Virus record (IMG/VR): IMGVR_UViG_3300042569_001787
Span: 1-64,000 of that record
From: a virus
Length of the DNA: 64,000 nucleotides
Reading direction: 5' to 3' (one strand)
Shown piece by piece: positions 2,459 through 54,516 of this stretch. How positions within the stretch are numbered: the first letter of the stretch is position 1; each line of letters starts with the position of its first letter. A program made the translations under genes and the position numbers. The notes under the pieces were generated by a model. That model ran no database searches, was not told where the DNA came from, and was given only the letters and a program-made list of their open reading frames with translations.

Positions 2459-2531
2459 TTAATAAAAATATATCTATAAATACTTTGTTATTAAGAATAA
2501 GTTATTATTTTTTTTAGAGTATTTATTATCA

Positions 2532-2921: not shown

Positions 2922-2996
2922 TTAATTTTTCGATAAGTAATTCTAATTTTTTTGGTTATTAACAAACTTATTAACAAAAAAATAGTTAGTACCTCC

Positions 2997-3422: not shown

Positions 3423-3543
3423 AATTTATTTTATTTTTAATAAATGTAAGTCTAACAAGCCAAATAATCAAATATTTTTTTGATTTAAAAAATAATATAA
3501 GTTATATTTATTAAAAATAACCCCCCGTAAACCCCTAAGTGAT

Positions 3544-3738
3544 ATGTTAAATGAAGAATTAGTAGAAGAAATGTATTGGTTGGCACATAACTCAAATGTT
3601 TTTGATGAATTTGGTAAAAAAATAATTAACGAATTAAATAAATATCCAAAATTACATAGATATGAGATTGTTGAGCAAGTATTTAATGATTTTGTTAAGG
3701 ATGGTGCAATTATCGTACCCCCTATTGAGTTCATATAA
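3544..3738 (+). CDS. hypothetical protein
   Basis: 64-aa ORF with phage-like composition. Confidence 0.5.
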   Translation: MLNEELVEEMYWLAHNSNVFDEFGKKIINELNKYPKLHRYEIVEQVFNDFVKDGAIIVPPIEFI

Positions 3739-4000
3739 CATCAATAGATGACACTATCGATATATTCTGTTTGATTCCCATAAATTTCCATGACTCTTCA
3801 GTTAATAGGTTAAGTCCATCAGGATAAACTCCTTCGGTTAATTCAATACTATTAATGAATAATTTACAATCAACCACAAAAGTGTGATTATTGGTTGAGT
3901 ACTTTACGTAGTTTACTATGACATAACTGCCCACACCAAAAAGTAGTTCCAAATCAGATTTAAAAATCTTATTTAATAAAATTTCGAGACATTTTTTCAT
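3731..4000 (-). CDS. hypothetical protein
   Basis: 89-aa ORF; TATTTAA motif just upstream on minus strand. Confidence 0.6.
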   Translation of the reverse strand: MKKCLEILLNKIFKSDLELLFGVGSYVIVNYVKYSTNNHTFVVDCKLFINSIELTEGVYPDGLNLLTEESWKFMGIKQNISIVSSIDVI

Positions 4001-7188: not shown

Positions 7189-7277
7189 AGTTAAATAATG
7201 TTTTGTGTAATAATATATAATAAAATTTATAGAGTCAAGCTCCTAAATAAAATCTTAAATAATTGTGCCAAAACAAA

Positions 7278-7300
7278 AAAACTGACAATTTGTCAGTTTT
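7278..7300. promoter_or_regulatory. perfect inverted repeat (candidate operator) between divergent dnaK and AsnRS-like gene
   Basis: AAAACTGACAA-T-TTGTCAGTTTT. Confidence 0.55.
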
Positions 7301-7376
7301 ATGACAAATAAAAATAAATACGTAAAAAAATAGTAATTATTTTACTTTTATTATTTTAAGAATATATTTATTTTTA

Positions 7377-7457
7377 ATGAAACAAAACGGGCCAAACCGA
7401 AACTGTGAAAACAATATAATAAAAGGTATCACCTTTAATAATCCCATCATTTATTGA
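7377..7457 (+). CDS. putative Asn-rich leader peptide (26 aa)
   Basis: MKQNGPNRNCENNIIKGITFNNPIIY; 7 Asn; stop lies within terminator hairpin. Confidence 0.45.
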   Translation: MKQNGPNRNCENNIIKGITFNNPIIY

Positions 7458-7470
7458 TGGGATTTTTTTT
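7440..7470 (+). terminator. leader terminator (attenuator-like)
   Basis: AATCCCATCA-tttat-TGATGGGATT-T run, ~40 nt upstream of ATG 7512. Confidence 0.75.
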
Positions 7471-7511
7471 GCCCATATGTGAAAAATAAATAAAAATAAA
7501 TAAAACAAAAA

Positions 7512-8339
7512 ATGAAAGACACAAAAACTTACAATGAACTAGTACAAAAGATGAGAGGATTTTTCCTTGATAAAGGATTTATAGAGGTACCAACACAATC
7601 AAGGTTATCAATATTGGCGGCATGTGAAAACCCACATTCAATCGCAACTTTTAACTATAATGGAGAAGTTTGGCCATTACCACAGACGGGCCAGATGTGG
7701 TTAGAATATGAGTTACTTAAAAATCCCGAATGGAACGGAGTGTTCTGTATATCAACTTCGTATAGACAGGAAAAAAATCCTATCCCTGGTAGACACGAAC
7801 TAATATTCCCAATGTTTGAATTTGAGTCTAAAGGTGTTATGGAAGATATGGTAAAACTTGAATTGGAACTTTTAAATTATTTAGGTTTTGATAAACCTGT
7901 AGAAGTTAATTATGATGATGTGTGTGAAGAATACGGAGGGATTCCAATTTTAGAAGATGAACATGAATCAAGAATGTGGAAAGAAAAAAGTTCAGTTATC
8001 TCACTTCAGAATTTTCCATTGAGGACAAATCCATTTTGGAATATGAAACATAATGAAAATAGTATTTTTAATAAAGTTGATGTGATACTTTACGGACAAG
8101 AGACTATTGGAAGTGCTGAAAGAAGTTGTGACCCTGAAGAGATGAGACATAACTTTTATACTATTGAACGTGGCGGTTATTCCGCCAAGTTGTTTGAACT
8201 ATTTGGAAGAGACAGAGTTGAGTCAGAACTTAATGAGTTCCTATCATTTAATTTTTTTCCAAGGTTTGGTGGTGGCATTGGTATGACAAGATTGTCAAGA
8301 GCGTGGAATTTAAATCAAGTTAATTTGGCGATTATTTAA
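7512..8339 (+). CDS. class II aaRS catalytic-domain protein without anticodon domain (AsnRS-like, probably archaeal-type asparagine synthetase)
   Basis: GFIEVPT motif 1, SYRQE...RH...F.MFEFE motif 2, GGGIGMTRL motif 3; only 275 aa. Confidence 0.75.
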   Translation: MKDTKTYNELVQKMRGFFLDKGFIEVPTQSRLSILAACENPHSIATFNYNGEVWPLPQTGQMWLEYELLKNPEWNGVFCISTSYRQEKNPIPGRHELIFPMFEFESKGVMEDMVKLELELLNYLGFDKPVEVNYDDVCEEYGGIPILEDEHESRMWKEKSSVISLQNFPLRTNPFWNMKHNENSIFNKVDVILYGQETIGSAERSCDPEEMRHNFYTIERGGYSAKLFELFGRDRVESELNEFLSFNFFPRFGGGIGMTRLSRAWNLNQVNLAII

Positions 8340-33851: not shown

Positions 33852-33925
33852 GGCTTCGTAGCTCAATTGGACAGAGCAACACACTTCTAATGTGTAGGTT
33901 ACTGGTTCGAATCCAGTCGAGGTCA
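33852..33925 (+). tRNA. tRNA-Arg(UCU)
   Basis: GGCTTCG/CGAGGTC acceptor, TTCTAAT loop, GGTTCGAATCC. Confidence 0.95.
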
Positions 33926-33939
33926 CTAAAATTTATTAT

Positions 33940-34191
33940 ATGGGAAGACATGACAATATCTTAGAACAAGAACACAACGAGTTTGTTAATAGCGAACTAT
34001 TTTGTCAAATGATTACGGAAAAAATAGAAAATTCACATTTTCATAAATATGATGGTATAACACCTGAAGGGTTTTTACTTATACCCGAACAAACCTTAGA
34101 AAGGTTGAAAGATTTTGAAACTTGGAAAGAGTGGAAAAATAATCCATCAATTTTAAAAAAAATGATGATTGACGATTTAAAAAATGAATAA
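33940..34191 (+). CDS. hypothetical protein
   Basis: 83-aa ORF. Confidence 0.6.
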   Translation: MGRHDNILEQEHNEFVNSELFCQMITEKIENSHFHKYDGITPEGFLLIPEQTLERLKDFETWKEWKNNPSILKKMMIDDLKNE

Positions 34192-34229
34192 TTTTTTTGT
34201 AGATTAAAAAAAAATAGTACATTTGTGGT

Positions 34230-34937
34230 ATGAAATATTCAGCACTTAAAGACATCGTTTATATTGGTTTGATGGTTTTTGTTATCGGAGGAACCAATGA
34301 GTATTTGGAAAAATACGACTATAGTTATGACAAAGTAATGGGTTCTTTGGAGTCTGAGGCAAAAAGACTTGACAAAGTTTACGGTTATGACAAGAACTAT
34401 TCAAAAGAAGAAGAGGTTAAAATTACTGATTCAAAACAACCATCTTCAACTGAAGTTAGTTCTGACCGAGTAATCAACATCCACGGTTTTGGTAAATATA
34501 CTCAAAGTGACCTTTATACAATCAAAGAAGGTGTTGAAAACTTCTACGGTATCCGTTGTGTCATCTCTGAAAGTGTTGAGTCAGATGATTTTTACTATGA
34601 CAATAACACTAACGTATTATTAGCGTACAAAGTATTAACATTATCTGTTGGTAAATCAAATATGAATATGTATGTTACTGACGAACCATTATGTAATGAA
34701 AATTCTAATGATTTGATTAGTGGACACGCAAGAATTAATTGTGACGGCTCTGTTATCAGTACTAAAGAAATGAGAAACAACAATCACTATAATAATACTA
34801 GTTTAGTTCATACTGCGGTACACGAATTAGGACATAACTTTGGGTTATCTCACTGTAATAACCAATCTTGTATCATGAAATCTCACGGTTTAGACACTAA
34901 AGAGTTCTGTAATGAGTGTAAATTAAAAATTAATTAG
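34230..34937 (+). CDS. membrane-anchored archaemetzincin-like (M54) zinc protease
   Basis: HELGHNFGLSHC...CIM...C..C. Confidence 0.8.
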   Translation: MKYSALKDIVYIGLMVFVIGGTNEYLEKYDYSYDKVMGSLESEAKRLDKVYGYDKNYSKEEEVKITDSKQPSSTEVSSDRVINIHGFGKYTQSDLYTIKEGVENFYGIRCVISESVESDDFYYDNNTNVLLAYKVLTLSVGKSNMNMYVTDEPLCNENSNDLISGHARINCDGSVISTKEMRNNNHYNNTSLVHTAVHELGHNFGLSHCNNQSCIMKSHGLDTKEFCNECKLKIN

Positions 34938-34962
34938 TGATAATTTTTTTACATCAATAAAC

Positions 34963-34992
34963 AAAAAAAGGGGGATAATTCCCCCTTTTTTC
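34963..34992. terminator. bidirectional terminator
   Basis: AAAAAAAGGGGGA-taat-TCCCCCTTTTTT. Confidence 0.85.
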
Positions 34993-35012
34993 TTTGATTT
35001 GGTATTTATCAA

Positions 35013-35177
35013 CTATTTCTTTTTAGAAATAATTGACCACACACCACCTACAAGTGTAACCGCTGCTCCGATAAGTTCTTGTACTGATGAATCAGTTGCA
35101 AGACCTTTCATAATCAGGATACCACCTACAAAAGTAAGTGCGTGTCTAACGATACCTTGGATTTGTTCTTTAGTCAT
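35013..35177 (-). CDS. 54-aa 2-TM holin-like protein (not in ORF track)
   Basis: MTKEQIQGIVRHALTFVGGILIMKGLATDSSVQELIGAAVTLVGGVWSIISKKK; TATTTAT upstream. Confidence 0.75.
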   Translation of the reverse strand: MTKEQIQGIVRHALTFVGGILIMKGLATDSSVQELIGAAVTLVGGVWSIISKKK

Positions 35178-35234
35178 TTTTAATGTTGATTAAAGGTTTA
35201 TGCCAGACTATAAATATCAAAAAAATAGTAAAAC

Positions 35235-35270
35235 AGTCTTTTGGTCTAATGGTAGGACCCGTGGTTTTGG
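35235..35270 (+). pseudogene. 5' half of a tRNA-Gln(UUG)-like gene
   Basis: AGTCTTT TG GTCTAATGGTAGGAC C CGTGG TTTTGG, with no 3' arm or T-loop. Confidence 0.5.
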
Positions 35271-35356
35271 GTTAAAAGATAAAAATTTTAATTTATTAGT
35301 TTAATATTTTTCGCACAAGTAGACTCCGATTACAAAATTTTTTGTATCTTTACAAT

Positions 35357-35851
35357 ATGAAAGACTCACTACCATATTGTAATACAGAAAAAGCGATTAA
35401 AGGTTATGAAGAATCCCAAATTGCGAAAAATGAAAAAAATGATTGTGTTGTAAGAGCATTCGCATCTTGTTTTGATGTGTCTTACAATTATGCTCACGGA
35501 TACGTTAGAGATAACTTTGGTCGTAATAACCGTCAAGGAACTTATGGTACTGTAAATAAAATGACCAAACTTGCGGAGAATAGAACTCAAATAAATTACA
35601 AAAAAGTTAAATGTGTTGGTAAATTAAACAATTACAATAGACGCACATTAGAATATACCGTTAACGTAAAGGGTGAAAAGGTTAACCGTAAAATGACTGT
35701 TGGTACTTTTACAAAACAAAACCCTGTTGGGACATTTTTTATGTTAGTTAGTCGTCACGCTTTCACAATTAAAGATGGTGTTGTGATTGGTAACTATGAA
35801 GATTCAACCAAGAAAAAACGTATATTGTTTTATGCGTTTGAAGTAAAATAA
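35357..35851 (+). CDS. papain-fold (C39-like) hypothetical protein
   Basis: NDCVVRA...HAFTIKDG; start revised to ATG 4 nt after TATCTTTA. Confidence 0.6.
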   Translation: MKDSLPYCNTEKAIKGYEESQIAKNEKNDCVVRAFASCFDVSYNYAHGYVRDNFGRNNRQGTYGTVNKMTKLAENRTQINYKKVKCVGKLNNYNRRTLEYTVNVKGEKVNRKMTVGTFTKQNPVGTFFMLVSRHAFTIKDGVVIGNYEDSTKKKRILFYAFEVK

Positions 35852-35908
35852 TAAAAAATATTTTACAAATTGTTTGGCAAATCAAAAGTGATTATATATC
35901 TTTGTGAT

Positions 35909-36109
35909 ATGGAAATAACAATTAACATACCCAATAGTGTTCTTAATAGAATGAAAGAACTCAAAATTACAGACGAAAATATTCAAAAAGAAATGGTAAT
36001 TGATTTTATCAACGACTCTTTGGACTCACATTACGCCAACGGAATGTTTGATAAATTCAGAAAATGGACATTAAAAAATGATAATTTTGAAGTTTATTTG
36101 GTAGATTAA
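35909..36109 (+). CDS. hypothetical protein (start revised)
   Basis: ATG 4 nt after TATCTTTG. Confidence 0.55.
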   Translation: MEITINIPNSVLNRMKELKITDENIQKEMVIDFINDSLDSHYANGMFDKFRKWTLKNDNFEVYLVD

Positions 36110-36201
36110 AAAAAGTTTGTATCTTTGTAAGGCAAACAACGGGGGTAGGAAGTGAGAGGTTGATGTCCTACTCCCGTAAAGAAAGAAGAAGTTCATTGAC
36201 A
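36096..36201 (+). promoter_or_regulatory. Bacteroidota sigmaA-type promoter, hairpin and boxA-like element of tRNA operon
   Basis: TTTGG (~36096), TATCTTTG (36120-36127), ACGGGGGTAGGA..TCCTACTCCCGT, GTTCATTGACA (36191). Confidence 0.7.
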
Positions 36202-36308
36202 TTAAAATATTGTGGTGGTAAGAAACGGGAAACTTGTAAAGTACATTAACCTGTTGACATAAGATGGTGAAACGAGAGTGTGTGTCAGCTACTTAACTGC
36301 AAATAAAT

Positions 36309-36382
36309 GGTAACTATAGCTCAGTTGGTAGAGCAAAGGTTTGTGGTACCTTGTGCCATGGGTTCAATTCCCATTAGTTACC
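36309..36382 (+). tRNA. tRNA-His(GUG) with encoded G-1
   Basis: AAGGT-TTGTGGT-ACCTT anticodon arm. Confidence 0.95.
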
Positions 36383-36394
36383 CAAAAAAAATAT

Positions 36395-36468
36395 AGTTAA
36401 TTAGCTCAGTTGGTTAGAGCAATTCCCTGATACGGAATAGGTCATTGGTTCGAGTCCAATATTAACTA
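36395..36468 (+). tRNA. tRNA-Ile(GAU)
   Basis: ATTCC-CTGATAC-GGAAT. Confidence 0.95.
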
Positions 36469-36473
36469 CATAT

Positions 36474-36546
36474 CGCGGGATGTGGAAATTGGTCATCCGC
36501 TCGGTCTCATAAGCCGAGATTACAGGTTCGAGCCCTGTTCCCGCAA
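36474..36546 (+). tRNA. tRNA-Met(CAU), initiator type
   Basis: C1xA72 mismatch (CGCGGGA/TCCCGCA); CTCATAA loop. Confidence 0.92.
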
Positions 36547-36621
36547 CAACAAAAGGGTAGAATATTCGTAAGGGCCTTTCCTGAAAGATGGCTAGCTAGG
36601 CCCGTGTCTACCCTGATTTTT

Positions 36622-36693
36622 GGTCCCATCGACTATCGGTTAGGTCGTCAGGTTTTCATCCTGGAAAGTCGGGTTCGATTCCCGGTGGGACTA
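36622..36693 (+). tRNA. tRNA-Glu(UUC)
   Basis: TCAGG-TTTTCAT-CCTGG. Confidence 0.95.
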
Positions 36694-36806
36694 CTATAGC
36701 CAACCAAGCTTTACTACGATAAGGGTTCATACCTTGACTTTACTAAATAAACGCTTAATAGAACAAAGTACAAGTTCAGAGTGAGGAGCGGGTCTCACAA
36801 ACTTTT

Positions 36807-36879
36807 GGTCCCGTGGTTGAATGGTTACAATTCCACCCTGTCACGGTGCGAGATACGGGTTCGAATCCCGTCGGGACCG
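36807..36879 (+). tRNA. tRNA-Asp(GUC)
   Basis: CACC-CTGTCAC-GGTG; GGTCCCG/CGGGACC acceptor. Confidence 0.95.
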
Positions 36880-36902
36880 CAAAATAATGAATAATAACTA
36901 TT

Positions 36903-37944: not shown

Positions 37945-38550
37945 ATGTCCACAGAAGTTATTGTTGCGTTTATATCAGGCGTATTAGGTCCTATTATTCT
38001 TTTATATACAAAGAACAAATTAGAGAAAAAAAAAGAAATGCCTGACATGGTTAAAGAAACACTACTAGTTAGTGAATTAATTACAACAAAAATTGAACAT
38101 ATTAAAGAAGAATTTAAAGCGGACAGAGTTTGGATAACACAATTTCATAATGGAGGTCACTTTTACCCGACAGGTAAATCAATGGCAAAATTCAGTGTCA
38201 TTTATGAGACGGTTTCCCAAAATACAAATTCAATTCAATCAAATTTTCAAAACATTCCTGTTAATTTATTTAGTAAGTCTATCAATTATTTACTGGAAAA
38301 TGATGTAATTCAAATTCACGATTATAAAGACGAATCTGTCGCAACTCACGGTTTAAAATATATTGCGGAAGATACAGGATGTAAATCAGGGTATTTATTT
38401 TCAATAAAAACAATTGATAATAAGTTTATTGGGACCTTAGGGTTAGATTTTTCAAAAAGAAAAACAAAACTTGATGTGGAGATGATAAATCACTTACAAG
38501 TTCACGCAACTTCAATTGGTGGAGTTCTTATGGGTCACCTAAATGGTTAA
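37945..38550 (+). CDS. N-terminal TM + GAF-like domain (T4 gpt holin-like architecture)
   Basis: TM; ADRVWITQFHNGG; FIGTLGLDF. Confidence 0.6.
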   Translation: MSTEVIVAFISGVLGPIILLYTKNKLEKKKEMPDMVKETLLVSELITTKIEHIKEEFKADRVWITQFHNGGHFYPTGKSMAKFSVIYETVSQNTNSIQSNFQNIPVNLFSKSINYLLENDVIQIHDYKDESVATHGLKYIAEDTGCKSGYLFSIKTIDNKFIGTLGLDFSKRKTKLDVEMINHLQVHATSIGGVLMGHLNG

Positions 38551-38579
38551 CAAACCTAAATCTCTTTATATTTATTAAG

Positions 38580-39791
38580 ATGAGAAGTTATATTAACGAG
38601 AAGCCCGAATCGGTCCAACCTTTAAAATATAGTAATGTTAATTTTAAACAAATTGGTCACGGTAATCCCGCCTCTGATAAAATAAACCCATCTTTATTAA
38701 TGGACGTAAATTTAGCAGCTAAAAACGCTAATGTTATGGCCAGTGTAACAACCGCAGTTTCAGGACATAAAAAAGGTACTAGACATGAGCTTGGTTTGGC
38801 GGTTGATTTGGCAATGTTTGATAATAAAGGTTACGGTAGTAAAGAAAGTGCTCAAAAAAAAGGTATTTACGATAAAATTGAAAAATTTGTTAGAACCCTA
38901 GAATCTATGGGGTATAAAGTAAATTCTGAACGAGGTAACGATAAAGCCGTTTTATGGTTTGGATTCCCAAATCATCATCATCATGTTCATGTATCAAGAA
39001 AATCTGATAATGGTACGTCTACAGGGAGTGATACTCAATCTACAAATTTTAAAAACTTACCTGAAAAAATTAAATCCTCGATAAATAAATTAAAAACAAA
39101 GTATGGTATTAACATTACTCAATCACATATTGATAAAGAATTTAAACAAGAAGGTAATATACAACCAGATAATGGAGGGATTAATAACGAAGCTAAGAAA
39201 AGTATTGAAAAATTAATAAAAGATTGTAAAAAAGCAAACCCTAAAATTCGGTTTCCCGACGGTATTGTTTCTGATTATAGAAGTTATGATGACCAAGTAG
39301 ATAATTTTGGAAAAAAAGCTAAAGATAGGGGTGTTGATGACACACAAAAGTATAACACAATTCCTGGTTTTTCTCAACACCACACAGGAAAGGCCTTTGA
39401 CATATTTAGTACTGAACCTAGTTGGTGGGATACAAATTCAGGGGTTAAAAATTGGGTTGCGGATAATTGTAAAAAATATGGGTTTAAGGTAACTTACAAT
39501 GTTGATGGGGTACTTAGAAAAAAAGAACCTTGGCATTTATTCTATATTGGTAATGAATCAATCACAACAACGTCTAATTCAACTAACGATTCAACCTCTA
39601 ACTCAACTTCTATCTCAACTAATGATTTGACTAATGATTTGACTAATGATTTGACTAATGATTCATCACAAAGTAACGACGTTATCCAAAAATTTTTAAG
39701 CCCATTGTTAGGTTCTTTAGGGTTTAAAGAAGGTGAGGAACCAACCAATAAATTGATTGAGGATATTAAAAGAATTAAAAATTTATTATAA
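38580..39791 (+). CDS. double M15-family peptidoglycan peptidase (M15-like + VanY-like)
   Basis: H..G.AVD...HVHV; YRSYDDQ...PGFSQHHTGKAFD...EPWH. Confidence 0.85.
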   Translation: MRSYINEKPESVQPLKYSNVNFKQIGHGNPASDKINPSLLMDVNLAAKNANVMASVTTAVSGHKKGTRHELGLAVDLAMFDNKGYGSKESAQKKGIYDKIEKFVRTLESMGYKVNSERGNDKAVLWFGFPNHHHHVHVSRKSDNGTSTGSDTQSTNFKNLPEKIKSSINKLKTKYGINITQSHIDKEFKQEGNIQPDNGGINNEAKKSIEKLIKDCKKANPKIRFPDGIVSDYRSYDDQVDNFGKKAKDRGVDDTQKYNTIPGFSQHHTGKAFDIFSTEPSWWDTNSGVKNWVADNCKKYGFKVTYNVDGVLRKKEPWHLFYIGNESITTTSNSTNDSTSNSTSISTNDLTNDLTNDLTNDSSQSNDVIQKFLSPLLGSLGFKEGEEPTNKLIEDIKRIKNLL

Positions 39792-40483
39792 TGGAAAAAT
39801 TTATTAACCCAGCCCCGTATGGTAATATGAAATCATCTATGATGTCAAAATCTGTTGATTTAATTGCATACCCAAATTCAAAATTAATAAATCCGTATGA
39901 CGGTGTTATTATTTTTGACAGAACACCTTCTTGTGAAAATTTTATTAAAATTAAACATGAGTTTAATGGTGATGATATATATTCCGAATTTTGTAATGTC
40001 GGTAAATCATTTGTTTCACCAGGCGATAGAATAAAACAAGGTCAAATTATTGGGTATTTCACTGACGATAGAATTAGTTACTCAATAAAAAACAATGATG
40101 ATAAAAAATTAGACGTATCAACATATCTAAAAGGGGTTGGTCCTAAAAAAGAAGAGCCTAAAAAAGAAGAACCTAAAAAAGAAGAACCTAAAAAAGAAGA
40201 CCCTAAAAAAGAAGACCCTAAAAAAAATAAACCAATACAAGATGACCCTAAACTTGATAATGACCCTAAACTTGATATTGGAAATAAAAATGTTGGGTCT
40301 GGTAATGTTTTCTTAGACACATTATTATCCCCATTTTCAATTGCCAATGATATTACCAAAGGTGTCGGTAAAAACATCAAAGGTGTCGGTAAAAACATTA
40401 AGACAGCTTTCAAAGAAGATTATGGTAATAATAAAAGACTTGTCGAACAAATAGATAAGATTAAAAAAATTATAAATAATTAA
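39791..40483 (+). CDS. degenerate M23-like domain protein with KKE[ED]P repeats
   Basis: NPYDGV...VSPGDRIKQGQIIG, no zinc His motifs. Confidence 0.65.
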   Translation: MEKFINPAPYGNMKSSMMSKSVDLIAYPNSKLINPYDGVIIFDRTPSCENFIKIKHEFNGDDIYSEFCNVGKSFVSPGDRIKQGQIIGYFTDDRISYSIKNNDDKKLDVSTYLKGVGPKKEEPKKEEPKKEEPKKEDPKKEDPKKNKPIQDDPKLDNDPKLDIGNKNVGSGNVFLDTLLSPFSIANDITKGVGKNIKGVGKNIKTAFKEDYGNNKRLVEQIDKIKKIINN

Positions 40484-40518
40484 ACAATCCCCCTTTTTTA
40501 GGGGGTTTTTTTTCTTTA

Positions 40519-40745
40519 AAAAAAAATTTAGTAAATCAAAAAAGTTTACTTATCTTTGTACAACAAAAGAGATAGATAACAATTCAGATACAAATCTTAA
40601 AAAAAAAATAAAAAAAGATTTGGTAAATCGAAAAAGTTTACTTATCTTTGTACAACAAAAGAGATAGATAACGATTCAGATACAAATCTTTAAAAAAAAT
40701 AAAAAAAGATTTGGTAAATTGAAAAAGTTTACTTATCTTTGTAAA
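40519..40745 (+). repeat. three tandem ~91-92-bp units each containing a Bacteroidota promoter
   Basis: TTT[AG]GTAAAT..AAAAAGTTTACTTATCTTTGTA with -7 boxes at 40551, 40643, 40734. Confidence 0.9.
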
Positions 40746-40750
40746 ACAAA

Positions 40751-40778
40751 TCGGAAGAGTCCGAAACGTTCTTTGAAA
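40751..40778 (+). promoter_or_regulatory. boxB-like hairpin and boxA antitermination element
   Basis: TCGGA-agag-TCCGA then GTTCTTTGAAA. Confidence 0.7.
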
Positions 40779-40784
40779 TATTAT

Positions 40785-41628
40785 TATCCATTACAACACT
40801 TCGGTGTTGTATAAAAGATAATCGGCCGTATATGGTCGTTAAATAAACCTCGAAAGGGGGATAAAGTGAAATCATCGTGTTAATGGTTTTGCGGTTCGGG
40901 TAACCGAACTCGAGTATACAAGTGGGATATCAGTGAGCCTGTAGTACCGAGGATAACTTCGTAGGGAAATGGAAAACTGAACGGGCAATGTGGATTGTCA
41001 GTTTGAGGTGGGAACACCAATAAGAATAACCCATAGGGGCCAAGTGAGAAGTGTACTCCAAATACACAATTGCGGGTCCCAATATAAGAGGTGACTTAAA
41101 ACCGAAGGGATAAAACCTGAAGGTAAGATAGAGAACGAGTGGTGTCGCTAATATCCTTACCACAGACCCACCAAGGTCTTGGTACGAAGTAATCTTAAAA
41201 TATGAGAGTGGGGACACTCTACCGAGTAGAAAAGTATCTTGTTGTTCAAAAGACAACGAGGCTTAAGACGGACCTCTACTTGGAATCATCCACAACACAT
41301 AACTTATACTAAATTTAAGTAAAACTAAAATAACTATAAGCAAAAGTGTTCGTCAGGTTTTGATGAAAGTCGCCTACATAGTCATGAGTTGTTCATGGCA
41401 TACCGAGACCGCAAGTCAACGTATATTGTTACCAAAAACCTCTAAGGAGTCGAATCCTAAGTCAGTTCGCAAGATTGAGGAGAGTAGAGTAGTAATAGAG
41501 TAGTTAAAACCTTAAGAAGTGATTGGTCTAACCAATCGGCGATGAGGATTACCATTCAAAAGATGGTGGAAATGAAGGGAAACAATAATCCTTCTAAAGA
41601 TTCTCACAAAACGGTGTATTCTCAGCCC
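40785..41628 (+). ncRNA. large structured ncRNA, GOLLD-like (~840 nt)
   Basis: No credible ORF, raised GC, many GNRA/UUCG hairpins and AGTA/GAA E-loop-like motifs, 3' end GGTGTATTCTCAGCC, own promoter and terminator; family assignment from memory. Confidence 0.7.
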
Positions 41629-41668
41629 TTTTTAAAATTACCCAATATATAGAATACGATTTTTAATC

Positions 41669-41764
41669 AAACCTCAATAATCTTGGGGTTTTTTTATTTT
41701 AAAAAAAGTTTTGTAATTTAATTTATGTGTATAAAAAAACCCCACCTTTTTAAGATGAGGTTTA
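41669..41764. terminator. back-to-back terminators for the convergent GOLLD-like RNA and tmRNA
   Basis: AAACCTCAA..TTGGGGTTTTTTT (+) and AAAAAAACCCCA..TGAGGTTT (-). Confidence 0.7.
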
Positions 41765-41769
41765 ATTAG

Positions 41770-42156
41770 TGGAGGTAGAGGGGTTCGAACCCTCGTGTTG
41801 TACACCTTACCTATTAAGGACTACACGCTTAGGATAACATTTTCTAATGTTCCAAAAATAGTTAGTTCGTTCTTCACCATCGTAAACTAACAACCAATGG
41901 ATGACTCAATTTTGGGTTCAGTCATTTTTCCACCCTTGTAAAGACTTCTGTTCCTAGGTTGTATGTCCACCGACCCGTATGGTTGTTTCCTATATGTTAG
42001 GCAACTACCGCAGCGTCTTCACGGATTAATCCGATTGTCGCCATTTTGTTTAAAACGTTTCCGTTTACTGTTTACATCCGTAGATTTAAGTGAAAGGATA
42101 CATCTCACTGCGTGCCCCGAATAACTAACAATGCCAGTCAATTCCAAGTTACCCCC
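41770..42156 (-). ncRNA. ssrA: tmRNA
   Basis: 5' GGGGGTA / 3' TACCTCCA with G3.U, GGAATTGAC D-like loop, GGTTCGAACCC T-arm, internal tag ORF 42062-41997. Confidence 0.93.
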
Positions 42157-42159
42157 ATA

Positions 42160-42214
42160 TTTTAAAGAACTTATTTCTTGTACAAAGATAGTAAAGTCTT
42201 ATTAATTACCAAAC
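42160..42214 (-). promoter_or_regulatory. tmRNA promoter and boxA
   Basis: Minus strand TTTGG...TATCTTTG...AGTTCTTTAAA. Confidence 0.7.
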
Positions 42215-42244
42215 TATTTTATATTTATATGTAAATAAATATTT

Positions 42245-43609
42245 GTGAAAGATTCAAAAAATGCTAAAATAATATTTGAAAACGAGTATGTTGTATTTGT
42301 ACAGGTGTTCAACAAGAACGCGGCCACATATTACGGACCTCCAAAAGTTACTGAATTATATGACCGAGATTTTAGTCATGGTGAATTATTTTTTGCCGTA
42401 AGTAAATTTAATCCTGGCCCTGAATATATATATACACTATACAAACCTACAGACGGTGAACTTGAATACTATTCAGGTATTGAATTAAAACTTGAAAGTT
42501 ACGATAACATCACATTTAAGTATCCGTACTTAAAACCCTATGTCCAAGATATTAGAGGAAATAGTGAAATATATGATTTGTTATTGAAAATTAAAAATGG
42601 TCAAAAGGTAAATAACTGGGACGCTAATAACTTTGACCCAATCGTATATGACATCAAATTTAATGAACAAACACCGGGTAAGAGTAGAGTTAAATTAAAA
42701 TTTGACAATTATGAGGATTATTGGAAATTATTTGACCTATCTGATGGAGATATTTGGTTTGCAAATTACGTATATTCTAATTATGAGTCCTACGATTTTG
42801 AAAGTGGAGATTTTGTTGATGAGGATTGGAAAAGAGGTTATTTATTACGTGAATTAAATGATGAAAACCTAATTAAATTAAAAGAAATTTTAAAAATACT
42901 ATCACCAGAACTTTCACAATTACGAAATGATGAAGAATGGGAAAAATCGTCTAGTTTATTATTAACAACATTTGAACGTGAATCTCAGGAAATTATGTCT
43001 GATTGGTTGTCAGAAAGAAATAACTGTAAAGAACGAGGTGCCCGTAAGATGATGGAAGACGACTGTTGTAATTTTTTCCAAAATTATGGAATATTCAATA
43101 TGGGAAATTGTTTTTATAGTTATGTGACGACAGTATCGGTGTTATTATCTTTATATTCAATGACGGGAGAAAGACATTTAACGGTTAGTGAGGTTTTAAG
43201 TGATATTGGACATAAATCAGGCAATATTGGTGGATGGGAAGAATATTCTTATGAACAAGATTGTATTGATTTTGATGATGAATCATTTAATCGTACTTGT
43301 GGTTGGCAATTAGATAATATGTTTACTAAACTTGAAGACTCTGACGAATTTGAGGATATTAAAAAATTCTCAGATAATGCGTCAAAAATTTTAAGTAAGT
43401 ACGATATGGAAACTAATTACAAATTACCCAAAGACGAATCAAGAAATTTTAAAATAGTTAAAATGAACCCAAAAACAAATAAAGTCCATGTTGTGGTTTC
43501 ATTAAAAGGTGGGTATCGTGGAGAAGAAAGAAGTTATGATTTTGAAGACTTTGACCAACTTTTACATCAATCGGAATTATTTGAAAATAAATTTGTCAAA
43601 GTCAAGTAA
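42245..43609 (+). CDS. hypothetical acidic protein
   Basis: 454-aa ORF, GTG start. Confidence 0.7.
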   Translation: MKDSKNAKIIFENEYVVFVQVFNKNAATYYGPPKVTELYDRDFSHGELFFAVSKFNPGPEYIYTLYKPTDGELEYYSGIELKLESYDNITFKYPYLKPYVQDIRGNSEIYDLLLKIKNGQKVNNWDANNFDPIVYDIKFNEQTPGKSRVKLKFDNYEDYWKLFDLSDGDIWFANYVYSNYESYDFESGDFVDEDWKRGYLLRELNDENLIKLKEILKILSPELSQLRNDEEWEKSSSLLLTTFERESQEIMSDWLSERNNCKERGARKMMEDDCCNFFQNYGIFNMGNCFYSYVTTVSVLLSLYSMTGERHLTVSEVLSDIGHKSGNIGGWEEYSYEQDCIDFDDESFNRTCGWQLDNMFTKLEDSDEFEDIKKFSDNASKILSKYDMETNYKLPKDESRNFKIVKMNPKTNKVHVVVSLKGGYRGEERSYDFEDFDQLLHQSELFENKFVKVK

Positions 43610-43627
43610 TTTACTTATCTTTGGCCT

Positions 43628-44458
43628 ATGGAGAGAAACTATCAATTACTAAAGGACGTTTTGTCGGTCCCAACAAAGACATATAAGGAAGACCGAATGA
43701 TTGAGTTTTTAGTTAATTGGTTAACTGAAAACCAAATACCATTTCAAGTTGACAAACACCGAAACATTTACGCAACTAAAACATCTCAGGATATTACTGA
43801 AGATTTCTTTTTCCCGTGTGTTATTGCCCATACTGACACCGTACATCAATTAGATGTTATAAACGTCAAAGAAATGGAATTACCTAACGCTCAGGGAGTA
43901 ATTAAACCATCTTTAAAAGCGTTCAACGATTTAGGACAATCAACAGGAATTGGTGGTGATGATAAATGTGGCGTTTATGCATGTTTAGAATTATTAAAAG
44001 AATTACCAAATCTTAAAGCAGCATTTTTTGTTTCTGAAGAAACAGGTTGTCACGGTTCAAAACAAGCCGATAAAGATTTCTTCAAGAACGTAGGGTACGG
44101 AATTCAATTTGATGCACCTGAGAATTGGATGGTTAGTGAGTTCTGTATGGGTGTTCAGTTATTTGGTAGAGACACCGAGTTTTTTAAATCGTGTGATGAG
44201 GTATTAACCGAAACATTTAATCCTGACAGAAAATATCAGTCTCACCCATATACCGATGTTTACGCATTGAAGAATACATTTGACTTCTCATGTATTAACT
44301 TCTCAATTGGGTACTATGATTACCACACAAGAGAAGAATATGTGGTTATTGAGGATGTTTATAACGGAATTAAAACGGGTAAAGAATTAATTGAAAAATT
44401 GGGTAACGTAAAATACCCATTCAAATCAAAACCACGATACAGTTATTTATTTGACTAA
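43628..44458 (+). CDS. M28/M42-like zinc peptidase
   Basis: AHTDTV, GGDDKCG, EETG, D, YH metal ligands. Confidence 0.85.
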   Translation: MERNYQLLKDVLSVPTKTYKEDRMIEFLVNWLTENQIPFQVDKHRNIYATKTSQDITEDFFFPCVIAHTDTVHQLDVINVKEMELPNAQGVIKPSLKAFNDLGQSTGIGGDDKCGVYACLELLKELPNLKAAFFVSEETGCHGSKQADKDFFKNVGYGIQFDAPENWMVSEFCMGVQLFGRDTEFFKSCDEVLTETFNPDRKYQSHPYTDVYALKNTFDFSCINFSIGYYDYHTREEYVVIEDVYNGIKTGKELIEKLGNVKYPFKSKPRYSYLFD

Positions 44459-44656
44459 AAAAACTCCTACGTCATTAATTTTAAGCTCATTTTACCTTTA
44501 TTTCAAGCTCATTTTTTATTAAAATTGAACGATAAAGTTATTAAAATTGAACGATAAAGTTAATCATTATGAGCTCTATTTTACTATTTGAATCTCAAAT
44601 TCAAAACGTATAATGTGGAGTTATTTTTTACTTATTAATGAACATAAAAAAAGGGG

Positions 44657-46699
44657 TTATTCAACCCCTTTTCTTTTTCGTGTAACTTTCTTCACTTCTT
44701 TAAATTTAACATCCCCATTTTCACTAATTAACGTATATTTAGTGTTTTCTTGAATGTTACTCTTAAGAACTTCTTCCGATATAAAGTCTTCAATTTTATC
44801 TTGAATAGCCCTTTTCAATGGACGAGCCCCATACATGTCATCAAACCCAACCTCAGAAATCATATCGACAAGTGAGTCATCAAATATTATATTATATTTA
44901 AGACCCGTTAATCTTTCTGATAAGACACTCAACTCAAGTTTAACAATTTTTTTAACATCTTCTTTCACTAATGAATTAAAAATAATGACTTCATCAATAC
45001 GGTTTAAAAATTCAGGGGCAAAAAACTTCTTAAGCTCTTTCTTCAAAACTTCTCTTTTTTGTTCTTCTTCAACGTAAGAACTTGAGCTAGTTTTAAACCC
45101 TACTCCAGCACCAAAATCTTGTAGTTTCTTAACCCCAACATTTGATGTCATAATAATAATACAGTTTTTGAAATTAATCTTTCTTCCCATACCATCAGTT
45201 AGATGACCGTCATCCAACACTTGTAATAATGTTGAGAATATGTCTTTGTTTGCTTTTTCAATCTCATCAAACAAAATTACTGAGTAAGGTTTGTTTTTAA
45301 CTTGTTCGGTTAATTGTCCTCCTTCATCATAACCAACATATCCTGGAGGTGCTCCAATTAATCTTGAGATACTATGTTTTTCTTGATATTCAGACATATC
45401 TACACGAATCATATTTTCCTGACTACCAAACATTTGTTTTGCTAATTGTTTTGCTAAGTAGGTTTTACCCACACCTGTTGAACCAAGAAAAATAAATGAA
45501 CCAATTGGTTTATTAGGGTCTTTGATGCCTAATCTGTTTCGTCTGATTGACTTAGCGATTTTCATAACCGCCTCAGATTGCCCAATAACTTTATCAGATA
45601 AGTTTGCCTCCATTTCAGACAATAATTTAGTTTCATCCGCATTTAGTTTACTGATAGGGATTTTGGTCATATTTGAAACAACCTCATAAACCAATTCAAT
45701 AGAAACTTCTTTCTTCTTAACTAAAAGTTCATCTTCAAATTTTTTCTTCTCAACATCTAATTTATTAAGAATACGTTTTTCTTTATCACGTAAATTTGCA
45801 GCTTCTTCGTAATTTTGTTTTTTAACAACATCAAGTTTTTCAATTTTAACATCTGTGGCCGCTTGTTTTAATTTTTCAATAATCTCAGGCATTTTAATTT
45901 CAACCTGACATCTTGCACCAACCTCATCAATAATATCAAACGCTTTATCAGGGAACTCTCTATCCGTGATATATCTTGCGGCCAAATCAACACACACAGA
46001 AAGTACTTCATCAGTATAGGATACCTTATGGAATGTTTCGTACTTATCTTTAACATTTTTAAGAATCTCTAATGTTTCTTCTTTTGTTGAAGCGTCAACA
46101 ATAACTTTTTGGAAACGTCTTTCTAACGCTCCATCCTTCTCAAAGTTTTTACGATACTCATCAAGAGTTGTAGCACCAACACATTGAATTTCTCCACGAG
46201 CAAGTGCTGGTTTAAAGATATTTGACGCATCTAAAGAACCTGATGAATTACCCGCCCCAACTATAGTGTGAATCTCATCAATAAACACAATGATATTTGG
46301 GGCGTTTTGTAATTCCTCAATAATTACTTTCATACGTTCCTCAAACTGACCACGATATTTTGTACCCGCAACTATTGAAGTCATATCCAACGATACAATT
46401 CTTTTATCCATTAAATTTCTTGGACATTCGCCGTTAAAAATTTTAATTGCCAATCCTTCTACAATTGCAGTTTTACCACAACCAGGCTCACCAATAATAA
46501 TAGGGTTGTTTTTCTTTCTACGAGAAAGAATTTGGGCAATCCTCGTAATTTCTCTCTCTCTACCAACAACAGGGTCTAATTTACCTTGTTCGGCTAATTT
46601 AATTAAATCTCTACTGAAGTTATCCAACACAGGTGTTGAAGAGTCAGATATTGATTTAGGTGGGTTATTCTTCCCCCCGTTGTCCACAGATTCTATCAT
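44657..46699 (-). CDS. clpC: ClpC-like AAA+ unfoldase lacking N-terminal Clp-repeat domain
   Basis: GEPGCGKT and GSTGVGKT Walker A; UVR-like QNYEEAANLRD; GVGF ClpP-docking loop. Confidence 0.88.
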   Translation of the reverse strand: MIESVDNGGKNNPPKSISDSSTPVLDNFSRDLIKLAEQGKLDPVVGREREITRIAQILSRRKKNNPIIIGEPGCGKTAIVEGLAIKIFNGECPRNLMDKRIVSLDMTSIVAGTKYRGQFEERMKVIIEELQNAPNIIVFIDEIHTIVGAGNSSGSLDASNIFKPALARGEIQCVGATTLDEYRKNFEKDGALERRFQKVIVDASTKEETLEILKNVKDKYETFHKVSYTDEVLSVCVDLAARYITDREFPDKAFDIIDEVGARCQVEIKMPEIIEKLKQAATDVKIEKLDVVKKQNYEEAANLRDKEKRILNKLDVEKKKFEDELLVKKKEVSIELVYEVVSNMTKIPISKLNADETKLLSEMEANLSDKVIGQSEAVMKIAKSIRRNRLGIKDPNKPIGSFIFLGSTGVGKTYLAKQLAKQMFGSQENMIRVDMSEYQEKHSISRLIGAPPGYVGYDEGGQLTEQVKNKPYSVILFDEIEKANKDIFSTLLQVLDDGHLTDGMGRKINFKNCIIIMTSNVGVKKLQDFGAGVGFKTSSSSYVEEEQKREVLKKELKKFFAPEFLNRIDEVIIFNSLVKEDVKKIVKLELSVLSERLTGLKYNIIFDDSLVDMISEVGFDDMYGARPLKRAIQDKIEDFISEEVLKSNIQENTKYTLISENGDVKFKEVKKVTRKRKGVE

Positions 46700-47374: not shown

Positions 47375-48700
47375 ATGGGCGATTTAAAAAGTATATTAAC
47401 TAGTTTTCAGGTGCAAGAGGAATTAAACCCTAAAATTTGGGATGATTCTTTAAAAAAAATGTCACCTAAAGTTAGGTCACGTCTACTTCAGATTGCTTAT
47501 GAGTTTATAGAGTTTTTAAAAGTAGATATTGTTGTATCAGATGTTATAATGATTGGGTCTCTTGTTAACTATAATTGGTCAAAATATTCAGATATAGATT
47601 TACATATTGTTGTAAATTTTAATCAATTTTCTGAAAACACCAAAGATTTGTATTTAGAATTTTTTGATTTGAAAAAAATTATTTTTAACCAAAAACATAA
47701 TATAAATATGTTTGGGTATGATGTTGAGTGTTTTGTTCAAGATGAAAACACAGAAGCATTTAGTAGTGGGGTATACTCGGTTTTATTTGATAAATGGGAA
47801 AACAAACCTAAAAAAGAAAATATTAAAATTGACCTTGAATTGATTAAAAACAAATCAAAAAAATGGATGAGAATTATTGATGGGGTTATTGAAAATGTTA
47901 AAGATGAGTCTATTGACGAGGCTAAACAAATAATTGACAAATACAAGAAAAAACTTAAAAAGTATAGAACTTGTGGGTTAGAAGAGGGTGGTGAATATTC
48001 GGATGAAAATTTAGTTTTCAAAGTCCTAAGAAGAAATGGGTATATTGAAAAGTTATATCAATATAAAGATAATTATATTGATAAAAAATTATCCCTGAAG
48101 GAATCATCCACCAATATCGGAGGTAATTTTAAAACTGATTTAGAAAACGGGCCAAAAAATCACGGTAGTAGAAAATTAGGTAATTGGCAATCAGATAACG
48201 CTTGGGATATTTTCGCACCTCCCAATACAGTTGTTAATTCATATACTAACGGTACTGTTACTAAAATTAGAGATACTGGAAAAAATTCTGGAAAAATTTT
48301 TGGAACACAAGTATCAATTAAAGGTGATGAGGGATTTCCCAATATTTTCTACACTCACGTTAAAAATGTAAAACTAAAAATTGGTGATACTATTAAAGTT
48401 GGTGATTACATTGGGGTTATTTCTGAATGGATTGGTCATGACACAATGACTCATGTACACATAGGTTTACCTTATGGTGAACATATAAGAAGTTTATTAA
48501 AAAATTCTGGAAAAATTTTTACTAATAAAACAAGTACTGACTATAATGTTGATAGTAATAACGATAAAAAAAATTCCGAGAATCCTGTCATTACCAAAGG
48601 TAGTGAAGAAAATACGGTTATTACCAAAGATATTAAAGGAAAGGATGAAGAAGTTAATAGTTGGTTAGCCCCATTATTGGCGGCATTAGGATTTAAATAA
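47375..48700 (+). CDS. Pol-beta-type nucleotidyltransferase fused to M23 peptidase
   Basis: GS...SDIDLH NTase; H...D, YTH, GD.IKVGD.IG, HVH M23. Confidence 0.8.
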   Translation: MGDLKSILTSFQVQEELNPKIWDDSLKKMSPKVRSRLLQIAYEFIEFLKVDIVVSDVIMIGSLVNYNWSKYSDIDLHIVVNFNQFSENTKDLYLEFFDLKKIIFNQKHNINMFGYDVECFVQDENTEAFSSGVYSVLFDKWENKPKKENIKIDLELIKNKSKKWMRIIDGVIENVKDESIDEAKQIIDKYKKKLKKYRTCGLEEGGEYSDENLVFKVLRRNGYIEKLYQYKDNYIDKKLSLKESSTNIGGNFKTDLENGPKNHGSRKLGNWQSDNAWDIFAPPNTVVNSYTNGTVTKIRDTGKNSGKIFGTQVSIKGDEGFPNIFYTHVKNVKLKIGDTIKVGDYIGVISEWIGHDTMTHVHIGLPYGEHIRSLLKNSGKIFTNKTSTDYNVDSNNDKKNSENPVITKGSEENTVITKDIKGKDEEVNSWLAPLLAALGFK

Positions 48701-52746: not shown

Positions 52747-54516
52747 ATGTTAAATTTATCCAAAGAACAGGTACTAATCGAGTACGTAAAATGTCATAAG
52801 GATGTAAAATACGCGTTAAGAACTTATCTACAAACCTACGACAATACAGTTTCTAAATACGTACCATTAGAATTATTTCCTGACCAAGCATCATTACTTG
52901 AAGATTACGAGAATTATAACGAAAACATCGCCCTAAAATATCGACAAGCGGGAGTATCTACAGTTACCGCCGCTTGGGCTTCGATGAAACTTTCTTTTGC
53001 TAAAAAAAATAAACCCGAAAAAGTTCTTATAATTGCTAATAAACTTGATACGTCATTAGAAATGGCGAACAAGATTAGAGCCTTTGTTGGTCAATGGCCA
53101 AGTTGGGTTGGGGTTGACTTTGCAGTTGAAAAAAACTCACAAAAACATTATAAATTAAATAACGGTAGTGAGGTTAAAGCCGTTGCAACATCTAAAGATG
53201 CCTTACGTGGATTTACTCCTACAATACTTGTATTTGATGAGGCGGCGTTTATCGAGGCCGACAGTGATTTTTGGGCGGCTTGTATGGCGTCCCTATCTAC
53301 AGGAGGTAAAGTAATTGTAGTCTCAACGCCAAATGGTTATGACCGAATTTATTATGAAATATACGACCAAGCATTAAGAAACATGAATGACTTTAGGATT
53401 ACTGAAATGTATTGGTTTCGTGACCCTCGTTATACAAAAGATTTATATTTAGTTAAAACCGAGGATATGATTCACTATCTTTTAAATAAAGAAGAGTACA
53501 GTGAAAAAGATATACTTAGTTGGTCACATATACCAGCATCCGAAAGAGATTATAGTGAACTAAAAAAATTAATGGACCAAGGTTATAAACCTTGTTCTTC
53601 TTGGTTTGAGGCGATGGTTAAGAAATTAAAATATGATAAACGTAAAGTATCTCAGGAGTTGGAATGTAACTTCTTAGGTTCAGGTGATAACGTATTTGAT
53701 TCTAAAATGTTACAAACTATTAGAGAAAATTCTATTACAGAACCCAAGAATAAAATGATGGGTAATGCTTTATGGATTTGGAAAGAACCTGTTGTTGGTC
53801 ATAAATACATTATGGGGGTTGACGTATCTCGTGGGGATAGTGAAGATTTTAGCTCCTTTCAAATTATTGATTTTGATGAGAGAGAACAGGTTGCGGAATA
53901 TGTTGGTAAATTACCACCAGATACTATGGCGGAAATTTGTTATAAATGGGCCAACATGTATTCATGTTTTATTGTAATTGATATTACAGGTGGGATGGGT
54001 GTTTCCACATCAAGAAAATTACAGGAAATGGGTTACAAAGACTTATATGTTGATGGTGTCGATACGGCTAATAAGTGGAAATACGATGCCAAGGCACATG
54101 AAAAAATACCAGGGATTAACTTTAACAATAAAAGGGTTCAAATTATCGCGTCATTTGAAGAGGGGGTGAGACATGGATTTAAAATTTATAGTTCAAGACT
54201 TTTTAATGAAATGAATACGTTCATCTACATTAATGGCCGTCCTGACCACCAAAAAGGACATCATGACGATTTAATTATGTCGGTGGCTATGGCAACTTAC
54301 GTTGCCGAGTCTTCATTTAGTAATTTGACTAAGGTTGTTGAGCACACTAAAGCGATGATTGAGGCTTGGGCGGTTAATAATAATGACCAAACATCAAAAA
54401 AATTAGAATTTAATCCTGTTATACCGCACATGTCTGAAAGAATTAATCAGTATAACAGTCAGAACATGTCTAGAGAAGATTATCAAAAGTATGGTTGGTT
54501 ATTTGGCGTTAGATAA
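52747..54516 (+). CDS. terminase large subunit (T4 gp17-like)
   Basis: KYRQAGVST, LVFDEAAFI, STPNG, MGVDVSRG, HDDLIMS. Confidence 0.95.
   Translation: MLNLSKEQVLIEYVKCHKDVKYALRTYLQTYDNTVSKYVPLELFPDQASLLEDYENYNENIALKYRQAGVSTVTAAWASMKLSFAKKNKPEKVLIIANKLDTSLEMANKIRAFVGQWPSWVGVDFAVEKNSQKHYKLNNGSEVKAVATSKDALRGFTPTILVFDEAAFIEADSDFWAACMASLSTGGKVIVVSTPNGYDRIYYEIYDQALRNMNDFRITEMYWFRDPRYTKDLYLVKTEDMIHYLLNKEEYSEKDILSWSHIPASERDYSELKKLMDQGYKPCSSWFEAMVKKLKYDKRKVSQELECNFLGSGDNVFDSKMLQTIRENSITEPKNKMMGNALWIWKEPVVGHKYIMGVDVSRGDSEDFSSFQIIDFDEREQVAEYVGKLPPDTMAEICYKWANMYSCFIVIDITGGMGVSTSRKLQEMGYKDLYVDGVDTANKWKYDAKAHEKIPGINFNNKRVQIIASFEEGVRHGFKIYSSRLFNEMNTFIYINGRPDHQKGHHDDLIMSVAMATYVAESSFSNLTKVVEHTKAMIEAWAVNNNDQTSKKLEFNPVIPHMSERINQYNSQNMSREDYQKYGWLFGVR

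Follow-up and report, generated by a model that had tools for sequence, protein, structure and literature searches.

We analysed a stretch of phage DNA of 64,000 nucleotides (nt), positions 1 to 64,000 of the IMG/VR virus record IMGVR_UViG_3300042569_001787 (the window in what follows), in which a large noncoding RNA gene on the plus strand faces a transfer-messenger RNA (tmRNA) gene on the minus strand. The region from ~40745 to 41628–41633 of the plus strand is almost certainly a full-length GOLLD RNA gene of ~885–890 nt, belonging to an uncultured freshwater T4-like jumbo phage. GOLLD RNAs are among the largest noncoding RNAs of bacteria and phages; they build an RNA-only cage bigger than the ribosome, and their function has been an open question since 2009. 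The features recognized at the locus are listed here, each with its basis; A1 denotes an alignment of 29 distinct full-length variants of the gene.

40517–40791 (+): three tandem units of ~92 nt, each with a Bacteroidota-type promoter (TTTG...TAnnTTTG); direct repeat family D1
40710–40741 (+): proximal promoter, with TTTG at −33 and TAtcTTTG at −7; motif match and conservation
40745–40792 (+): conserved 5′ leader, a hairpin followed by the near-invariant motif GUUCUUUGAA; alignment A1 and motif scan
40793–40810 (+): variable hairpin ACAACAC-uucg-GUGUUGU; sequence and fold
40818–41221 (+): conserved core of the 5′ domain, 18 helices; RNAalifold on A1
41222–41628 (+): GOLLD 3′ domain (407 nt), the universally conserved part; RF02032, 324.3 bits
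41284–41358 (+): unpaired AU-rich linker of ~60–75 nt; unpaired in the Rfam alignment
41359–41368 with 41503–41512 (+): 5′ and 3′ strands of a long-range helix of 10 base pairs (bp); Rfam pseudoknot brackets
41445–41478 (+): two adjacent hairpins whose loops have self-complementary cores; loop comparison in A1
41611–41633 (+): terminal hairpin with a conserved GUAUUCUCA loop, then UUUUU (41629–41633); model end and relatives
41669–41698 (+): intrinsic terminator with a 9-pair stem and a U7 run, a back-up or alternative 3′ end; stem followed by a T-run

Identity and boundaries of the GOLLD gene

The identity of the RNA was established by an Rfam scan of the whole window. The GOLLD model, RF02032, matched 41222–41628 on the plus strand with 324.3 bits (gathering score 150; E = 4e-92), and the match was untruncated, spanning positions 1–416 of the 416 in the model. 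Alongside a tmRNA and six tRNAs, this was the single strong match outside the tRNAs. Because the match runs over the whole model above the gathering score, the identification as GOLLD is correct; the locus belongs to a kind of RNA already known, and the class is not new. A first-pass annotation, made by a model from the sequence alone, had described an ~840-nt GOLLD-like giant noncoding RNA at 40785–41628, and this description is borne out by the RF02032 score, the two-domain architecture, the AU-rich linker, the location in a phage and the nearby tRNAs. All four of the hairpins that it named are present in the sequence, as is the AU-rich linker (at ~41285–41345). It had suggested a search with the Rfam models of GOLLD, ROOL and OLE as a check, and of these only GOLLD matched: neither ROOL and OLE nor any other large Rfam RNA was found in the window at the gathering score, or in 40480–41260 at E values up to 5. 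Its fallback, a new large RNA class in case the element was not GOLLD, is not needed, since RF02032 matched. Furthermore, the 889-nt unit has a predicted minimum free energy of −236.7 kcal/mol, as compared with −207.3 ± 6.7 kcal/mol in dinucleotide-preserving shuffles (z = −4.4).

RF02032 models only the conserved 3′ domain of GOLLD, and the 5′ boundary was placed by other means. The Bacteroidota-type promoter motif (TTTG, a spacer of 17–21 nt, TAnnTTTG) matches at 40619–40650 and at 40710–40741. In ~24 of the 29 distinct variants, the first conserved column of GOLLD comes 3 nt after the end of the TAnnTTTG box. Because the promoter in the window ends at 40741, 3 bases before that column, we place the start of the RNA at ~40745, ~40 nt upstream of 40785; judged from promoter position and conservation, transcription would begin at ~40743–40748. 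The start at 40785 given in the first-pass annotation should be moved to ~40745, whereas its 3′ end stands, 41628 being the exact end of the Rfam match.

The terminal hairpin with its U-run is the likely primary 3′ end. A U-run follows the terminal hairpin in most relatives, and two RNA contigs stop at 41625–41626 (X16 record 14 and X17 record 22), a weak hint of a proximal 3′ end. In many relatives, an equivalent of the intrinsic terminator at 41669–41698, a hairpin with a T-run, lies 40–70 nt downstream. With its boundaries corrected in this way, the locus adds a cleanly bounded, stand-alone GOLLD gene that has its own promoter and a conserved leader.

The leader itself shows conservation of two kinds. 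Its hairpin, UCGG-aagag-UCCGA (40751–40764), covaries in A1, CGG/CCG being replaced by CAGG/CCUG. The motif GUUCUUUGAA (40768–40777) occurs with at most one mismatch in 94 of the 106 GOLLD-candidate loci that have enough upstream sequence, nearly all of the misses being among distant or low-scoring loci, and in 92 of the 94 it lies 407–524 nt upstream of the 3′ domain. One candidate partner of GUUCUUUGAA, the invariant UUCAAAAGA loop at the start of the 3′ domain, was rejected; seven of nine loci with a G-to-A variant in the leader keep the loop unchanged. A partner scan over 817 windows of a 73-variant alignment resolved no partner. Two purine-rich windows, 41475–41482 and 41512–41519, tied with 92–94% pairing and 0–1 compensatory pairs, and the first is already paired in the Rfam GOLLD structure. 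In the RNAalifold structure, 4 bp join the leader to the terminal UCAG loop; neither side varies, hence this pairing is no evidence either way.

Upstream of the leader, repeat family D1 comprises three copies (93% and 63% identity), the third unit being the promoter that adjoins GOLLD. The same duplication of the promoter unit is seen in relatives L060, L014, L032, L015, L040, L054, L029 and L018. After the first two promoter copies of the window, a conserved segment of ~40 nt (ACAACAAAAGAGAUAGAUAAC...AAAUCUU) and an A-run stand in place of the GOLLD leader, and the segment also follows the duplicated promoters of the first six of these relatives.

Two conserved domains and putative cage contacts

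A motif scan of IMG/VR yielded 61 loci, and nhmmer searches with the two halves of the RNA found both, contiguous and in the same order, in ~50 of the 61, with graded similarity. A further 57 loci, each passing two extra GOLLD motifs, came from a second and looser scan, and a hidden Markov model (HMM) of the clade detected the 5′ domain in ~45 of them at 190–475 bits. Because so many further loci carry the 5′ domain, the two-domain form is a widespread, lake-type GOLLD and no local oddity. Among the phage contigs of IMG/VR, more than 70 distinct variants of GOLLD retain the 5′ domain, and the 73-variant alignment was built from such variants.

Base pairing is conserved across both domains. RNAalifold on A1 gave 187 pairs, and compensatory double changes occur at 108 of these. 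Within the 5′ domain (~480 nt), 97.2% of the cells at its 101 pairs are paired, and 60 pairs show compensatory changes, as compared with 10–20 in slid controls, in which the pairing partners were shifted by 1–3 alignment columns. The 3′ domain has 82 pairs, 99% paired in the 29 variants, 48 of which show compensatory changes against 9–12 when slid. The core of the 5′ domain contains a GAAA-tetraloop hairpin, CCUC-gaaa-GGGG (40848–40859), and two junctions, a multi-helix one at 40922–41034 and a second at 41082–41203. The region of the hairpin at 40793–40810 is variable in length (A1 columns ~50–150), and every variant forms a hairpin of its own there. A permissive scan of the 5′ half against all Rfam families, to E values of 5, matched nothing, and the covarying alignment adds depth for just the half of the RNA that Rfam does not model. 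GOLLD RNAs are described as less conserved in their 5′ region (PMC12286853), and the GOLLD RNA whose structure has been solved, env-38 (PDB 9MEE; Kretsch et al. 2025, PMC12286853), is a single chain of 833 nt with a 5′ region (1–420), a 3′ region (421–833) and a disordered linker.

One could envision that two genes lie here, a stand-alone RNA of ~480 nt (40745–41221) and, downstream of it, a short GOLLD consisting of the 3′ domain only. Such an arrangement would fit with Rfam modelling the 3′ half only, with the phiCbK-type entries of 487 nt in the published GOLLD alignment (Kretsch et al.; PMC12286853), and with the failure of the clade's 5′ HMM to find anything in Caulobacter phage phiCbK. 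However, there is no promoter or terminator motif between the halves, which are contiguous with constant spacing in ~90 loci; an RNA contig (X15 record 4, 41186–41546) bridges the boundary with at least 31 letters on each side; and the single chain of env-38 includes its 5′ region. We regard two separate genes as very improbable. It is scarcely credible that the locus represents a new class of large structured RNA that merely resembles GOLLD. Although the 5′ half has no Rfam match even at E values up to 5, the GOLLD model is covered in full by the 3′ half with a score that exceeds the gathering value more than twofold, the relatives score 270–330 bits on the same model, and it is typical of GOLLD that the 5′ region is less conserved (PMC12286853). 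The chance that the region is instead protein-coding, a self-splicing group I or group II intron or RNase P is negligible: an open frame of 108–110 amino acids does exist on the minus strand (that of 108 amino acids at 40930–41256), but it is not kept, the longest frame among the variants switching strand and frame over 68–158 amino acids, while substitutions follow base-pair compensation and no intron or RNase P family matched at threshold. The first-pass annotation had named the lack of a transcript or of covariation, or an intron or RNase P match, as what would count against GOLLD; covariation and RNA contigs were both found.

Turning to the 3′ domain of this single GOLLD RNA, the linker varies in length and sequence among relatives (A1 columns 713–786), and neither ARAGORN nor Rfam found inside it a tRNA, which the linker of GOLLD RNAs sometimes carries. 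Immediately after the linker begins the long-range helix, all 10 pairs of which form in the window and enclose the central stems of the domain. The helix covaries (A1 columns 797–806 with 946–955), with GC in 19 variants and CG in 10 at one pair, and UA in 16, AU in 10 and GC in 3 at another. A hairpin GAC-cgcaa-GUC lies at ~41407–41417. Of the two adjacent hairpins at 41445–41478, the first has the loop GUCGAA with a CG core at 41451–41452, and the second, UCAGUU-cgca-AGAUUGA at 41462–41478, has the loop CGCA with a GC core at 41469–41470. Of the 29 variants, 17 have GUCGAA as the first loop and 12 have CGCAA(G), a switch of the core from CG to GC; the second loop contains GC in all 29.

In the published structure, symmetric kissing loops join the cage halves; the core of L21a (bridge B8) switches between CG and GC, and that of L21b (bridge B9) is conserved (PMC12286853). 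The hairpins at 41445–41478 behave likewise and are the likely counterparts of L21a and L21b, assigned by their position relative to the linker. According to the mechanism that we favor, copies of the GOLLD RNA would self-assemble into a closed, homo-oligomeric cage, as 14 copies of env-38 do. Symmetric kissing loops would hold the two halves of this cage together, the window's RNA keeping the CG and GC self-complementary cores for these contacts, and the linker would sit inside the cage. That the GOLLD RNA of the window forms a cage as env-38 does seems probable to us.

Known relatives and RNA from lakes

The resemblance to env-38 extends over the whole 3′-domain model, the two domains, the variable unpaired linker and the length of more than 800 nt. 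Both RNAs are phage-encoded near tRNAs, and both have L21a/L21b-like self-complementary loop cores and conserved GAAA tetraloops in the 5′ domain. Unlike env-38, which lies downstream of tRNA-Met, the GOLLD of the window has no tRNA in its linker or immediately upstream; it has its own triplicated Bacteroidota-type promoter and the conserved leader of hairpin and GUUCUUUGAA.

A more distant relative is found in phiCbK (JX163858.1, locus L065), a published GOLLD host that is unrelated to the lake clade and is also a large phage with an RNA-gene island, in which the GOLLD 3′ domain scores 165 bits. There, a permuted tmRNA (RF04321, 71 bits, 1216–1534 on the minus strand) lies ~500 nt from GOLLD (2043–2529 on the plus strand). 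In contrast to the window, the phiCbK GOLLD carries a tRNA-Gly in its linker, the tmRNA is a permuted two-piece form located upstream on the opposite strand, the host is an alphaproteobacterium, and the RNA has no detectable sequence similarity to the 5′ or 3′ profiles of the lake clade. The 5′ domain may be specific to the lake-type subfamily, because the clade profiles find nothing in phiCbK. Of these three RNAs, the GenBank record of phiCbK annotates the tRNA only, leaving both GOLLD and the tmRNA unannotated.

The nearest DNA matches in GenBank (71–79% identity over parts of the query) are in two Mahaphages. Rfam GOLLD matches LR745206.1 (L003; 634,780 bases) at 3337–3742 with 287 bits and LR756502.1 (L002; 642,428 bases) at 3254–3660 with 275 bits. 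The two records, each with a full GOLLD, correspond to Mahaphage genomes of 634 kb and 642 kb that Al-Shayeb et al. (2020, PMC7162821) described; these belong to the largest phage genomes published, and their predicted host phylum is Bacteroidetes. The text of that paper does not mention GOLLD. GOLLD accordingly ranges from T4-like jumbo phages up to megaphages of 634 kb and 642 kb. The Mahaphage genes differ from that of the window in being directly flanked by tRNAs, with no tmRNA in the retrieved stretches, and the terminase of the window's phage is not close to theirs. In LR745206.1, a tRNA-Met stands immediately upstream of GOLLD, as it does for env-38. Because the GOLLD DNA matches Mahaphages and the terminase matches other phages, similar GOLLD genes occur in phages whose terminases are far apart, which hints that GOLLD genes may move between co-occurring Bacteroidota phages. 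Another large RNA that forms an RNA-only cage, ROOL, is likewise borne by phages and prophages near tRNA islands; its sequence and fold are unrelated, and it has no match in the window.

Twenty public runs, selected because they contain the stretch, include six lake or freshwater metatranscriptomes; four of these were mapped onto 38500–44500. Over GOLLD (40711–41715) the summed depth of RNA contigs was ~25 to 3800 in three runs, and in the fourth no RNA contig covered the first bin (40711–40911). The tmRNA region reached ~3 to 240, as compared with 0–4 over the flanking protein genes, and this near silence of the flanking genes argues against DNA carry-over. Several RNA contigs agree with the window in every letter, and many of the rest represent variant strains. 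Over the two upstream promoter units (40510–40710) the depth was ~0–3, a value from contigs that cannot prove those promoters silent. These results show that the GOLLD locus is present as RNA in lakes in nature, the contigs being silent on timing, strand, ends and true levels. By assembled-contig depth, lake-type GOLLD is among the most prominent transcripts of its own phage in natural samples.

The neighbouring tmRNA and a possible role in translation

The convergent tmRNA reported in the first-pass annotation was confirmed by Rfam, and its gene has signals of its own.

41767–42156 (−): phage tmRNA, convergent neighbour of GOLLD; Rfam RF00023, 72.1 bits, cut-off 47, model positions 1–374
42183–42213 (−): the tmRNA's own promoter; motif match
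41737–41763 (−): tmRNA terminator; hairpin and T-run

Both a G3.U70 pair in the acceptor and a T-arm are present in the tmRNA, whose predicted tag reading frame is ATIGLIREDAAVVA followed by a stop. The gene does not encode the 3′-terminal CCA and reads ...UACCUCC-A-CUA. ARAGORN, when run on the window, did not call the tmRNA, though Rfam does. One metatranscriptome contig of 396 nt (X17 record 23) joins the 3′ end of the tmRNA at 41764 back to 42129 (a step recorded as "goes back 366"), ~27 nt inside the 5′ end, and looks circular or head-to-tail. An artefact of assembly or of the library could explain this contig, as could ligation or processing of the tmRNA.

The proximity of the two RNAs recurs among relatives. 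A homologous convergent tmRNA lies 115–2371 nt downstream of GOLLD even where both RNAs have strongly diverged, and in lake-type variants that are less closely related the two RNAs share a strand, the tmRNA standing immediately upstream or downstream, which makes three arrangements overall. When the 3′ domains were clustered at 95% identity, a tmRNA was present within 3 kb in 26 of the 45 informative clusters; the corresponding figures were 20 of 39 at 90% identity and 7 of 17 at 80%. These shares are biased slightly upward, the informative clusters including tmRNA-positive ones with little flank. The association of GOLLD with tmRNA is real in these data. In the papers searched, as judged from titles and abstracts, we found no positional link between the two.

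What might the cage do? One possible hypothesis is that during infection it would bind or enclose parts of the translation apparatus, namely tRNA, tmRNA or ribosomes. Residence in an RNA-gene island, proximity to tmRNA and published pull-downs, in which ribosomes bind GOLLD (PMC12286853), all point in this direction, and we consider a role of the cage in handling translation components possible but somewhat doubtful. A narrower version of the hypothesis is that GOLLD and the phage tmRNA work together, the cage serving the phage in its manipulation of translation or of ribosome rescue, where it might hold tmRNA, tRNAs or stalled ribosomes, or deliver them; this we think unlikely. If it is true, then a proximity that survives rearrangement across lineages, phiCbK included, would reflect function rather than descent. 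The first-pass annotation had suggested a translation-related role from the neighbouring genes. Recurrent tmRNA proximity across lineages lends this suggestion modest support, and the role is plausible but unproven. The recurrent genomic link to tmRNA is, in any case, a concrete and testable lead.

Several points weigh against the interpretation given here. With respect to the RNA itself, the 5′ half lies outside the coverage of RF02032, its homology to the 5′ domain of env-38 (stems P1–P12) is putative, and the clade's sequence profiles of both halves gave no match in phiCbK. Cage assembly is deduced from family membership and two loop motifs. The transcript ends are deduced as well, since assembled contigs cannot give ends, strand or true abundance. 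As for the tmRNA, about half of the lineages have none nearby, and an Rfam check of 11 GOLLD loci with room for one, at which nhmmer had given no match, found no tmRNA in the available DNA, tRNA arrays being present instead. The proximity may reflect only the clustering of RNA genes in phage RNA-gene islands. Finally, no SmpB is encoded in the 92.7-kb record fragment, although a fragment cannot show absence.

The remaining features concern the phage and the surroundings of the two RNA genes.

33852–36880: six tRNAs, five at 36310–36880 and one at 33852; ARAGORN and Rfam
38580–39791: VanY/M15 peptidase, upstream of GOLLD
39791–40483: M23 peptidase-like open reading frame, just upstream of GOLLD
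44657–46699 (−): ClpC/ClpB-like double AAA+ protein; domain scan
47375–48700: nucleotidyltransferase–M23 fusion

The virus record has 92,750 bases, is ~32% complete according to CheckV, and encodes a large terminase, a portal and a major head protein. The phage is a T4-like jumbo phage that most likely infects Bacteroidota. Where 4.8 occurrences of the Bacteroidota promoter motif would be expected, there are 12, and the terminase (52747–54516) is T4-like, with best matches of 27–29% identity to a 484-kb uncultured phage, a Microcystis phage and Flavobacterium phages. The ClpC-like gene that the first-pass annotation placed near GOLLD is present as listed, and the KTSC protein that it also mentioned was not seen in the 19 open reading frames scanned against Pfam, a search that was not exhaustive.

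Cell-wall peptidase genes bracket GOLLD and the tmRNA. Inside the M23-like open reading frame, a perfect 21-nt tandem duplication (CAAAGGTGTCGGTAAAAACAT twice, at 40357–40398) gives an in-frame repeat of seven residues. In one relative, the phage contig L036 (GOLLD 3′ domain at 7256–7670), a match to the group I intron family (RF00028, 61 bits, 6002–6189) lies a few hundred bases upstream of GOLLD. The adjacent tRNA array of L036, ~2.6 kb upstream of the 3′ domain, includes an ARAGORN tRNA with the anticodon UUA, which reads the UAA stop and is a possible suppressor tRNA.

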